A stretch of DNA of 4,616 nucleotides, taken from the IMG/VR virus record IMGVR_UViG_2671180680_000003; one strand, 5' to 3'. Shown in pieces: positions 1 to 4,616 of the stretch. The notes beneath the pieces were generated by a model. The model worked only from the letters and a program-made list of their open reading frames with translations, searched no databases and had not been told where the DNA came from. The position numbers and the translations under genes are program-made. Within the stretch, counting starts at the first letter, position 1. Each line of letters starts with the position of its first letter. This stretch comes from a virus. Taxonomy: Duplodnaviria; Heunggongvirae; Uroviricota; Caudoviricetes.

Positions 1-10
1 CAATGTGCAT

Positions 11-45
11 AAAAAAATCCGGAAACAAGTGAGCGTTTCCGGATT
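11..45 (-). terminator. Putative Rho-independent terminator downstream of the portal gene (minus-strand specific)
   Basis: Plus 16-26 (aatccggaaac) and 35-45 (gtttccggatt) form a perfect 11-bp inverted repeat around an 8-nt loop (27-34). On the minus-strand transcript the stem is followed by a U-run (complement of the A-run at 11-17). On the plus strand the stem is followed by cttac, so it would terminate only minus-strand transcripts. It lies about 30 nt past the portal stop (78-80). Confidence 0.5.
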
Positions 46-77
46 CTTACACAGCCACTGGATCGGTCAACTGATCC

Positions 78-1325
78 TTAACTGATCGGCATTACACCAC
101 CGGGACGCGGATTCATATCTTCCAGGTCGCGGCAGTCATTGGAAGAGTAAATTCCCCAGTTGATCCCGGTGGCGTAGGCTTCAAAACGGGACTTCATATC
201 CCCGCGCAGTAACGCCCCGGCGTTAAATTTGGCGTAATAAACGCCCTGCTTACTTTTTCGTACCAGTCCGGTGTTGATCCGCTGTTCGATGCGGGTCAGA
301 TACGGCACCAGTGAATAGTTGATAAATCCCAGCCCCAGCTCTTCGATATTGTTGAAGGTGGCGCGATCGGTGTTCTGCACCATGTGCAACGGCACCCGGA
401 ACAGACGACAGATTTCTTCCAGCTGAAACTTGCGGGTTTCCAGGAACTGACTGTCCTCGGCGTTCAGCGCCATCGACTTCCAGTCCAGCCCCATTTCCAG
501 AATCATCGGGCGGTGAGCATTGCCAAGCCCCGTGTGACACTCCTCAAAATCTTTCTTCAGACGCTCGTAAGCATCCGGCGTGAGCTTTTGTTCCGTACGC
601 AACACACCGGATGTCACCGCACCATTACTAAACAACCTGGCACCGTGCTCCTCGGTTGCCGCTGCCAGTGAAATGGCCTCACGCGCATACGCAATGGGAT
701 TCAGCCCGACAAGTCCATCCAGCGTCAGGGTGCGCACATGCCAGATTTCATTCTGGGTCAACACATCCACGGAACCATCCGGAAACGTCACCTGATAAAC
801 CGGCTGCCACTGGCTGTTCAGCTTCGGTTCCACACAGCCCGGATCTATCGGAAGAAGCTCCACCACTTCTCCCAGTGCCTTTACCTTGTAGGCGTAAAAA
901 TTCCCCCGTAGACACAGGCAGACAATAACCAGCTCCCAGAATTCCTGCGGTGTCATGTAGCCATTAGGTTTTGCCGAAACCAACTTATGCAGTCGTTCAT
1001 CCACCGCCCGTGTTTTCAGGGTACCGCTGATTTTGTAGAGACTGCAGGGCAGCATACCAACAGACTCTGCCAGCACCCTGACGCAAGAATAGACCGCCGT
1101 CAGGCGCATGGCCCGCTGGCTACTGATCCGCTTTCCGGTATAGGTGTCGTATGACAGCCCGATAGCATCAGCAGTTCTGCTGGCGTGGTCACCGGCACAT
1201 CGCTTTTTCGTTGAAATAATCCCGAAAAGAACACTATTTACCTCCGCCGACAGACTGCCGTGTACGGTCGAGATATCGCGCCACCAGCCACGACCAGAAC
1301 AGGCACAGCGCCCCGGCAACAACAA
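78..1325 (-). CDS. Phage portal protein, HK97-family-like; 5' boundary uncertain
   Basis: Longest ORF is 415 aa with TAA stop at 78-80. It carries the [22 protein letters not shown] motif that I recall as typical of the N-terminal region of HK97-family portals, and it sits directly downstream of the large terminase. The track start at 1325 is a TTG (followed by two more TTG codons) and the first 31 codons overlap the small membrane ORF in another frame. The first in-frame ATG is at 1109..1107 (M73), which would give 343 aa. I found no ATG/GTG/TTG between them. Confidence 0.85.
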
Positions 1326-1416
1326 AACCCGCCGGGGGATAAATCAGCCAGGCACCATACGCCAGCAAAAGCGCACCCAGCACGCCCACCAGAGGCGCGA
1401 GAATCAGCATGATCAT
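1234..1416 (-). CDS. Hypothetical small membrane protein (60 aa, two predicted transmembrane helices)
   Basis: ATG at 1416..1414 is preceded by a GAGG Shine-Dalgarno with 5-nt spacing (minus strand ...CTGAGGTAATTATG), 11 nt after the large-terminase stop. The translation [60 protein letters not shown] has two hydrophobic stretches separated by PPAG and a short charged tail. No family recognised; could also be a chance ORF in a hydrophobic-coding frame. Confidence 0.45.
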
Positions 1417-1427
1417 AATTACCTCAG

Positions 1428-3161
1428 TTAAAGCGAGCGGATCCCGTAGGACTCAATGTGGTCAGACAGCGTGTCTTCTTTCTCGTACAGCATGGCTCTG
1501 CCAACCGCCATAATCAGCGCAACTGCACCATCGATTTTGTTTTCCGCCTGCTCTTTGACGGGTTTCACCACATCATCGTTACCCGGCATGTTTTTGCCGA
1601 CCACGTTGCCGATACACCAGGTCATGATGGGATTGCCGTCATGATGAAAACGTCCCGATTCAATCGCTGCTTCCAGCTCTTTCATCGGATCGGACATATT
1701 GGTGAAGTTCTGGACGATAGTGACGGGATTCAGGTCTTCATCAGCAAGGTCATGTGACAACCCGGTCGCCCCGAAGGGGTCGATGGGTGACTCACTGACC
1801 GGGCTGATTTTGTTCGCCGCTTTGGCCTCCTCGAGGATGTAGCGATAATCCACCTCCGCACCATCGGTAACGGTCAGAACGCCCATTTCCACCCATTTCT
1901 GAAAGCGTTCGGCTGTCCGTCGATCTTCATTTTTCTCGACGCTGTACACCGTGTCATACGGTACCCAGAAACGCGGGGCCACACTGTAGTAATGCGTTTT
2001 ACCGTCAATCTCGCGGGTATAAAGTCGCGCCATGCTGTTCATATCCAGCTTACGCGCCAGGTCAAAGGCCAGAATGCACGGCTGCCCCTCGAACTGCTCA
2101 AGGGTCAGTGATTTATCCTCGCAGCTCTGCCAGCTCACCAAGTTGAAATACGCCGAACGCGCCGACACCCAGATATTGAGGTGTTTTGTTTTAAAGACGT
2201 TTGCCAGACGGGCGTTATTTTTCGCACGCTGCTGCTGACTTAACAAAAATTCGCGATAAACCGACACGCCAATATTTGGATTGGCTTTTTCCAGCACCTG
2301 CGGGCCGGTCCAGTCGTCACCTTCATCAACGGTATAGATGATCCCGAACAGTTCATCGTTAGGCACCGAGCCGTTGAGCATCTCGATGACTTCCCGCCGC
2401 TTGTCGTAGCACGGCCCCTCAATGTTGTACCCGGCGGTGGTGATGGCCCACATCAGTGGCTGACGTCGCGCCCCCATCCCGGTAAGCATTGTGGTATAAA
2501 GCGCATCGGTGGCATGCTCGTGATATTCATCAACCACGGCACAGTGGGGTGATGAACCATCACCTGGGTTGCCGATCAGCGGTTCAAACCGCGCGCCATC
2601 CTCCGGACGGTTCATGTTTGAGGCGTTAACCTCAATCCCGAACGCTTCCGTCAGCATGGGTGTGCGTTTACACATCAGTCGCGCCGGGCGAAAGACTTCC
2701 CACGCCTGTTTCTCTGTCGTGGCACCGGAATACACTTCCGCGCCAAACTCGTTATCACAGGCAAAACAATACAGGGCAACACCGGCAGAGATTGCTGATT
2801 TGCCGTTCTTACGGGGGATTTCGGTGTACACCTCCCGGAAGCGGCGCAACCGGGTGCCTTTATTGACCCAGCCAAACGCACAGCAGATCACAAATAGCTG
2901 CCACGGCTCCAGCGTGATGGGCATCCGTTTGAATGCCCACTCCCCCTTGGTGTGCGGCAACAGCTGAATAAATTTCGCGGCCCGTTCAGCCAGGTCCTTG
3001 TCGAAGCGGTAACGAAACGACTTACTTTTTTCCGCCATCAGGTCATCAAGATGGCGCTGGCAGGCCTGAATCACAAACTGGCAGGCAACAATCTTTCCGC
3101 GCACGACATCCCGGGCATACTGATTTGCAGCATTTACGTTGGGGTAAGATTTCCGGCTCAT
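1428..3161 (-). CDS. Phage terminase large subunit (ATPase plus nuclease)
   Basis: 577-aa ORF with ATG at 3161..3159 and TAA at 1430..1428. Has a P-loop-like segment ([14 protein letters not shown], residues about 114-127) and a Walker-B-like acidic patch ([10 protein letters not shown]). Size and position (after the small terminase, before the portal) match lambdoid/HK97-type large terminases. Its ATG overlaps the upstream stop as ATGA. Confidence 0.93.
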
Positions 3162-3554
3162 GATTCGATAATTTTCAGAAACGGGTTAGTGGCTTTCTTC
3201 TGCCCCGCCAGGCCAATCAGACGCTGGCGGCTGCTGGGGTCGAGTCCGAGCATTGCCCCCGTGCTGCTCATCTCGGACTCCTGTTCTTTTTTGGCGGTCA
3301 GCTCCGGATTTTTGACCCTGCCGCCCATTGCACCGGTGATGGTGTTGCCCTGTATGGCAATATTTTTCACGGCACGTCGCCAGAACTCATAGGCCACGCA
3401 CCACCGCTCAAGTACCGCCAGGTCAGTCACGCACAGCAGGCCCTGACCGCAGAGTTCTTTGGTTGTCAGTTGCCACATGATCGTGGCGAGAGGGAGATCT
3501 TCTTCAGCGAACCACTCTGGTGGCTCAACACCTTTGATGGGCGTAAAAACAGGT
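3158..3554 (-). CDS. Phage terminase small subunit, P27-family-like (C-terminal part; N-terminus hidden in the N-run)
   Basis: About 131 readable codons ending at TGA 3158-3160, which overlaps the large-terminase ATG. The C-terminal region ([39 protein letters not shown]) resembles the conserved tail of P27-type small terminases as I remember them. The part of track ORF 3158..4003 upstream of the gap is an artefact of translating N as X. Confidence 0.75.
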
Positions 3555-3881
3555 NNNNNNNNNNNNNNNNNNNNNNNNNNNNNNNNNNNNNNNNNNNNNN
3601 NNNNNNNNNNNNNNNNNNNNNNNNNNNNNNNNNNNNNNNNNNNNNNNNNNNNNNNNNNNNNNNNNNNNNNNNNNNNNNNNNNNNNNNNNNNNNNNNNNNN
3701 NNNNNNNNNNNNNNNNNNNNNNNNNNNNNNNNNNNNNNNNNNNNNNNNNNNNNNNNNNNNNNNNNNNNNNNNNNNNNNNNNNNNNNNNNNNNNNNNNNNN
3801 NNNNNNNNNNNNNNNNNNNNNNNNNNNNNNNNNNNNNNNNNNNNNNNNNNNNNNNNNNNNNNNNNNNNNNNNNNNNNNNNN
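3555..3881. other. Run of 327 N (assembly gap or masked sequence)
   Basis: Directly visible in the sequence. It breaks both the HNH ORF and the small-terminase ORF. All ORFs in the track that cross it are bridged by X and their across-gap continuity is not real evidence. Confidence 1.
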
Positions 3882-4197
3882 GGCAGGGCCAGCACAGACT
3901 CTGCAGGTTGCTGTCTGCGTCTGTTCCGCCATGCGCTTTCGGGATGATGTGGTCGACGGTTTTCGCCTCGCTCACCACACCGACACGCAGACACAACTGA
4001 CACAGACCTTTATCGCGCTTCAGAATACGGGCACGAATCACCGTCCATTTTGAGCCATAGCCACGCTGGTGGCGGCTCAGTCCGCGCTGGTGCTGCACCC
4101 AGCCTTCACCGCGATGTTTATCGCAGTAACCCGAACTGTCTGTGGTTGTACCTGCACATCCACGCTTACGGCAGGCACGTGGGATTAGTGATGGCAT
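3882..4197 (-). CDS. Phage HNH endonuclease (N-terminal about 105 aa; C-terminus hidden in the N-run)
   Basis: ATG at 4197..4195 with GAGGT Shine-Dalgarno 5 nt upstream (minus strand ...GTATGAGGTATTTATG). Translation has an HNH core (DHIIPKAHGGTDADSNLQSLCWPC) with paired CxxC zinc ligands (CQLC and CWPC), plus an N-terminal Cys/His cluster (CRKRGCAG...YCDKH). Sits immediately upstream of the terminase genes, as HNH proteins do in HK97-like packaging modules. Confidence 0.85.
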
Positions 4198-4239: not shown

Positions 4240-4616
4240 CTACTTAATGCACTGAGTGCGGATATACTCCTGTGCCCCTTCCAGTTGCATCTGCATCGTC
4301 ATCAGCCGCTCTCTGAGGGTGAAATAATCCCGTTCAGCGGTGTCTGCCTGTCGGGGGCTGGTTGCATTATCCACGCCGGAGGCGGTGGTGGCTTCACGCA
4401 CTGACTGACAGACTGCTTTGATGTGCAACCGACGACGACCAGCGGCAACATCAGCGCGCAGAGTTTCATTTTCAGCTTTCGCATCAGCTAACTCCTTCGT
4501 GTATTTAGCATCGAGTGCATTAACATCACGCTGTCTCTGCTGCATGTCAGTAATGGTTGCGTTCGCCAGCTTCAGTTCTCTTGCGTTTTTGTCGCGCTGC
4601 TCTTTGTAGGTAATGG
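4240..4616 (-). CDS. Rz: Spanin inner-membrane subunit Rz (i-spanin), 5'-truncated by the window edge
   Basis: The track ORF starts at an internal Met (4545) but the frame stays open to the window end. My hand translation of 4546..4614 gives ...[24 protein letters not shown], which continues without a break into [26 protein letters not shown]...[25 protein letters not shown]...[11 protein letters not shown]. This is near-identical to my recollection of lambda Rz. TAG stop at 4240-4242. The N-terminal TM segment would lie beyond position 4616. Confidence 0.92.
4302..4484 (-). CDS. Rz1: Spanin outer-membrane lipoprotein subunit Rz1 (o-spanin), embedded in Rz in another frame
   Basis: 60-aa [63 protein letters not shown] with a signal peptide plus lipobox (VVGC) and a proline-rich mature region, closely matching lambda Rz1 from memory. 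It has its own strong Shine-Dalgarno (minus strand AAGGAGTTAGCTGATG) and lies wholly inside Rz in a different frame. Confidence 0.9.

Follow-up and report, generated by a model that had tools for sequence, protein, structure and literature searches.

The stretch of DNA studied here, referred to below as the window, comprises 4,616 nucleotides of a tailed-phage record (Caudoviricetes; IMG/VR IMGVR_UViG_2671180680_000003). Its genes all lie on the minus strand and follow one another in the order Rz/Rz1, HNH endonuclease, a run of N's, small terminase (terS), large terminase (terL), a small membrane protein and portal. In window coordinates, the features are the following:

1..94, minus strand: end of an IS4-type insertion sequence truncating portal; homology to the intact prophage L004 ends at 95
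78..1325, minus strand: portal gene, 3'-truncated (PF04860, E=3e-107; start codon uncertain)
1234..1416, minus strand: hydrophobic ORF of 60 aa between terL and portal; the same-position ORF of E. coli relatives is annotated ymfR
1428..3161, minus strand: large terminase gene, 577 aa, intact (PF03354 and PF20441)
3158..3652, minus strand: P27-family small terminase gene (relatives: 164 aa); readable at 3158-3554
3555-3652, minus strand: first 33 codons of the small terminase gene, predicted under the mask (count made from the terS side)
3555..3881, no strand: 327 N in one run, a mask or assembly gap; near-identical genomes have 254 nt here
3653..3846, minus strand: predicted HNH-terS intergenic position holding cos; 194 N, where S. 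sonnei relatives have 121 nt
3703-3712 (counted from the terS side) or 3776-3785 (from the HNH side): expected place of TGCCCGCCCC
3847-3881, minus strand: predicted HNH end under the mask, HKAKTARERIR plus TGA (count made from the HNH side)
3847..4197, minus strand: gene for the HNH endonuclease (relatives: 116 aa); 3882-4197 readable, 105 aa
4240..4616, minus strand: Rz spanin gene, incomplete at the window end (the full-length S. sonnei copy has PF03245)
4302-4484, minus strand: Rz1, embedded in Rz (from translation)

The N-run is the only one in the window, and a recount gave exactly 327 N at 3555-3881, as the first-pass annotation of this DNA had reported. On its right side, the HNH ORF starts at 4197 and can be read down to 3882 (316 nt, i.e., 105 codons plus one base); on its left side, the small terminase ORF can be followed from 3554 as far as the stop at 3158 (131 codons plus one base). 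These limits reproduce the approximately 105 and 131 readable residues that had been counted for both proteins. Other ORFs run across the N's and are translated as X's over them, and were discarded as artefacts of the mask. The content of the block was deduced wholly from other genomes.

Loci with an identical large terminase were gathered by exact-protein look-up (n = 10), and we take all ten to be Shigella sonnei, CP000038, for instance, being strain Ss046. The left flank of the N-run is 100% identical over 3554 nt in most of these loci, and the right flank matches at 734 of 735 nt in nine of them, window position 4349 being the only mismatch. The placement of HNH directly upstream of terS, followed by terL and portal, holds in the window and in the S. 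sonnei loci. The distance between the flanks is 254 nt in nine loci and 253 nt in L008, and the inter-flank stretch is identical in nine of the ten. The same 254 nt are also present in six viral contigs, and the 254-nt equivalent was found in 1188 of 5426 complete E. coli genomes; the E. coli with the best right-flank match reaches 99.7% identity, but has a different terS. Read in phage direction, the 254 nt are made up of 35 nt of HNH end, 121 nt of intergenic DNA and 98 nt of terS start, which is MAGTAGRSGRRPKPTARKALAGNPGKRALNKDE in the S. sonnei equivalents.

By comparison with these loci, the N's would cover the last 11 HNH codons plus the stop, roughly 121 nt of intergenic DNA with cos, and the first 33 terS codons, and the masked sequence would be expected to read ...CWPCHKAKTARERIR-stop / ...GGGGCGGGGCAAATCCC...TGCCCGCCCC ATCGTTTTTTT... 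/ ATGGCTGGAACG... in that order. The interpretation of block 3555-3881 as HNH end, cos and terS start is thus supported by homology, and what had been proposed from the window on its own finds its counterpart in S. sonnei: the missing HNH C-terminus is supplied as 11 more residues before a stop, the final His anticipated after CWPC is there (CWPC-HKAKTARERIR-stop), the missing N-terminus of the small terminase consists of 33 residues, and the intergenic DNA with cos that had been placed inside the block corresponds, by homology only, to the 121 nt with TGCCCGCCCC in the near-identical genomes.

The identity of the genes on both sides of the N's is clear from their readable parts and from the full-length copies. 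The S. sonnei HNH protein matches PF01844 (E=1.6e-16, 60.6 bits versus a cut-off of 21.4) at residues 66-112, and HNH is also related to PDB entry 5h0m, described in the PDB listing as 'HNH endonuclease' (E=1e-12). In the window, the readable part covers residues 1-105; His106, the last metal ligand, is masked, and is seen in the relatives alone. The S. sonnei small terminase matches PF05119 (Terminase_4; E=3.7e-20, 72.6 bits versus a cut-off of 24.7) over residues 57-147, wholly in the readable part, and its residues 34-164 are identical in the window; a search for solved structures related to TerS gave none at E<=0.01. The large terminase is of HK97 type, with PF03354 (TerL_ATPase, E=8e-26) and PF20441 (TerL_nuclease, E=4e-33), two domains that it shares with HK97 gp2, to which it is 26% identical by BLASTP over 522 aa (E=8e-31).

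The size of the N-run deserves separate consideration, as it exceeds the 254-nt equivalent by 73 bases. In the 38 loci with exact anchors on both sides, the anchor-to-anchor spacing varies between 253 and 259 nt, and a spacing of 268 nt occurs in phage vB_EcoM-689R6. Gapped-pattern scans for the same anchors at 310-340 nt gave zero matches in viral, genome and metagenome contig collections, and the control scan at a spacing of 240-270 nt matched 27 viral contigs. Given this near-constant spacing of 253-259 nt and the empty scans at 310-340 nt, the number 327 is probably an estimated or arbitrary mask length and not the true one, and the N-run is unsuitable for inferring either reading frame or true size. 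The warning that the run length says nothing on the true length was therefore well placed, with equivalents of 253-259 nt. Alternatively, the 327 nt might be faithful, the standard 254 nt having received about 73 extra nucleotides in the cos intergenic region, e.g., through a duplicated cos or a small insertion. Masks that overwrite bases do preserve length, a private SNP at 4349 sets the window apart from all retrieved genomes, and the spacing is naturally variable, as the range above and vB_EcoM-689R6 illustrate; against these points, none of the 38 exact-anchor loci exceeds 259 nt, the three collections were empty at 310-340 nt while the control worked, and the flanks differ hardly at all from those of genomes with 254 nt. 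We regard a faithful length as unlikely.

Turning to the cos site itself, TGCCCGCCCC is present as one copy at 3450-3459 of L005, an unmasked equivalent, where 61 nt separate it from the HNH stop and 50 nt from the terS ATG; the readable part of the window does not contain it, even with one mismatch allowed. The HNH-terS intergenic region measures 115-125 nt in phiP27, SfV and E. coli relatives, and at the place where the window is masked, a cos site is present in each of the ten near-identical S. sonnei loci, as well as in 28 further related ones. The meaning of the 10-mer comes from Shigella phage SfI: in run-off sequencing of its virion DNA, the 10 nt TGCCCGCCCC were missing from the ends, and the authors' conclusion was that the missing 10-mer forms the cohesive end and that SfV shares the mechanism (PMC3636060). 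The SfI record begins at the base directly following TGCCCGCCCC, and from there into terS it is 100% identical to S. sonnei; the left ends of SfIV and SfV are 100% and 99.4% identical to the S. sonnei sequence, respectively. Furthermore, the record of phiP27 annotates a 10-nt cos-site, CGCCCGCCCC (misc_feature 21806-21815), between HNH L34 and terS L35, at the same position as TGCCCGCCCC, and in HK97 the corresponding 10-mer, CGCCGCCAAA, constitutes the final 10 nt of the genome record. A G-rich box and TCAAATC are common to the cos regions of HK97, phiP27, SfV and S. sonnei (L005 3405-3500), and the distance from the end of the 10-mer to the T of TCAAATC is 41 nt in all four, i.e., box, TCAAATC and 10-nt end keep one register from HK97 to S. 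sonnei. The SfI/SfV/phiP27-type motif can be written as YGCCCGCCCC, located some 60 nt beyond the HNH stop, with about 45-50 nt left to the terS ATG. The masked cos would belong to this type, with the G-rich box, TCAAATC, TGCCCGCCCC and ACCCGCG plus an A-tract arranged in that order.

The same intergenic DNA contains an inverted repeat, GGGGCGGG...CCCGCCCC, followed by a T-run, and could be conceived mainly as a transcription terminator or other RNA element rather than as a packaging site. The repeat is indeed perfect over 8 bp, with 33 nt between its arms and ATCGTTTTTTT after it. Nonetheless, its RNA fold is no better than that of shuffled sequence (z = -0.69), a terminator scan made no call, and no Rfam match was obtained at E<=1, so a terminator or RNA element in the hidden region was rejected as a candidate. 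In addition, HK97 keeps the end register without having the repeat, and the right arm of the repeat coincides with the cohesive end that experiments located in SfI. This alternative is accordingly given a very low probability, and the assignment of the intergenic DNA to cos is preferred. Finally, it is extremely improbable that the mask conceals an unrelated insert (an IS element, for instance) or that cos has been lost by deletion: the locus is certainly IS-ridden, with an IS4-type end in portal and further transposase genes in the S. sonnei loci, but subtraction of the gene ends (35 + 98 nt) from 327 nt leaves 194 nt, below the size of an IS element, which is thereby ruled out, and the cos intergenic region is intact in 10/10 of the near-identical loci.

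Taken from sequence comparison, the reading that we favor, and hold to be very likely, treats the N-run as a mask, or a gap in the assembly, at the HNH-cos-terS junction of an HK97-style cos packaging module; the module belongs to a defective prophage of S. sonnei type that is truncated by an IS, and the hidden stretch would have a true length of about 254 nt. The masked feature is already known and common: it corresponds to a phage packaging junction that has been characterized before and is very widespread.

The way in which such a junction might operate can be outlined by analogy with HK97, which has 10-nt 3' overhangs and whose HNH protein, gp74, stimulates the cleavage of cos by terminase (PMC9410871; PMC11331095). 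HNH genes adjoining cos and the terminase genes represent a recognized and widespread arrangement (PMC3592412). In the HK97 genome, the rightmost annotated gene is HNH and the leftmost is terS, and HNH is thus next to cos and terS when the two ends are taken together. On this model, the small terminase would bind just downstream of the cut site, and the nuclease of the large terminase, aided by the HNH protein, would cleave concatemers to leave 10-nt ends, probably as 3' overhangs. For the SfI type we infer a 3' polarity from the 10-nt 'gap' at both SfI ends and from HK97. At +14 to +26 lies ACCCGCG plus an A-tract, an element conserved between the SfV and phiP27 types. The HK97 small terminase site, CTAACCCGATTTTTT, spans +15 to +29, and its C:G pair at 21 and its A-tract are essential (PMC11331095). 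By resemblance to the latter, ACCCGCG plus A-tract may be put forward as a weak candidate for the small terminase site; the analogy is weak because neither BLAST nor Pfam reveals similarity between the small terminase and HK97 gp1. As a separate observation, ACCCG plus an A/T-tract does occur downstream at the place where HK97 TerS binds, despite the small terminases not being detectably similar.

The three closest known systems can be compared as follows. With SfI, SfV, SfII and SfIV the S. sonnei equivalent shares the cos 10-mer, TGCCCGCCCC being identical, and, for SfI and SfIV, the left end from cos into terS; its HNH, however, is of phiP27 type and not of SfV type, the left arm of the repeat is GGGGCGGGGCA in place of GGGGCGGGTCA, and they are viable, whereas a truncated prophage is found here. 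The Stx2e phage phiP27 has the same order of HNH (L34), cos, terS (L35) and terL (L36), but its 10-mer starts with C instead of T (CGCCCGCCCC versus TGCCCGCCCC), and its terminases are less similar. For HK97 (gp74 HNH, gp1 TerS, gp2 TerL), besides the shared arrangement, TerL type and cos register described above, the HNH proteins have 34% identity across 70 aa, and the differences include its TerS, the distance from HNH to cos (319 nt versus 61 nt here) and the cohesive end (CGCCGCCAAA versus TGCCCGCCCC).

The packaging module (3158-4197) is also a mosaic, with a phiP27-like HNH and SfV-like TerS and TerL. At the amino acid level, HNH is 99% identical to phiP27 L34 and 78% to SfV orf53; TerS is 98% identical to SfV orf1 and 48% to its phiP27 counterpart; and TerL is 98% identical to that of SfV and 77% to that of phiP27. 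This change of affinity from HNH to the terminases places the recombination joint in the conserved cos region, under the mask.

The locus is what remains of a defective prophage, with cos as a relic. The final 33 aa of the intact portal homologue are replaced by VMPIS-stop, and window positions 1-94 match what we take to be the IS4 terminal repeat. In the S. sonnei loci, an IS4-family transposase gene (PF13006 and PF01609) comes next, with further transposase genes after it; in L008 and L009, the next genes belong to host Pfam families (S30AE ribosome-associated, PheL leader, chorismate mutase/prephenate dehydratase). Head genes are absent from the S. sonnei loci. With a truncated portal and the head genes gone, the locus is unable to make virions, and for these same reasons inducing the IS-truncated prophage in order to map virion DNA ends would be futile and yield nothing.

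Some minor observations concern the neighboring genes. The 60-aa ORF at 1234-1416 has no Pfam match. The single-base difference at 4349, seen against nine of the ten S. sonnei loci (L009 being more divergent on the right flank), alters two overlapping genes at once, changing Leu to Gln in Rz and Trp to Arg in Rz1; the latter site falls in what we take to be the conserved DWQTPLNG motif of lambda Rz1. A 35-nt pattern that includes this base had zero matches among genome and metagenome contigs and one among viral contigs, the unrelated L016, which is 91% identical on one flank; an exact-protein look-up with the incomplete Rz product gave no match either. In the prophage of E. coli UTAK-3 (L001, 6388-7024), which has a related HNH-terS module, genes for a subtilase-family AB5 toxin binding subunit and a scabin-related ADP-ribosyltransferase are found upstream of that module, just upstream of the lysis genes.
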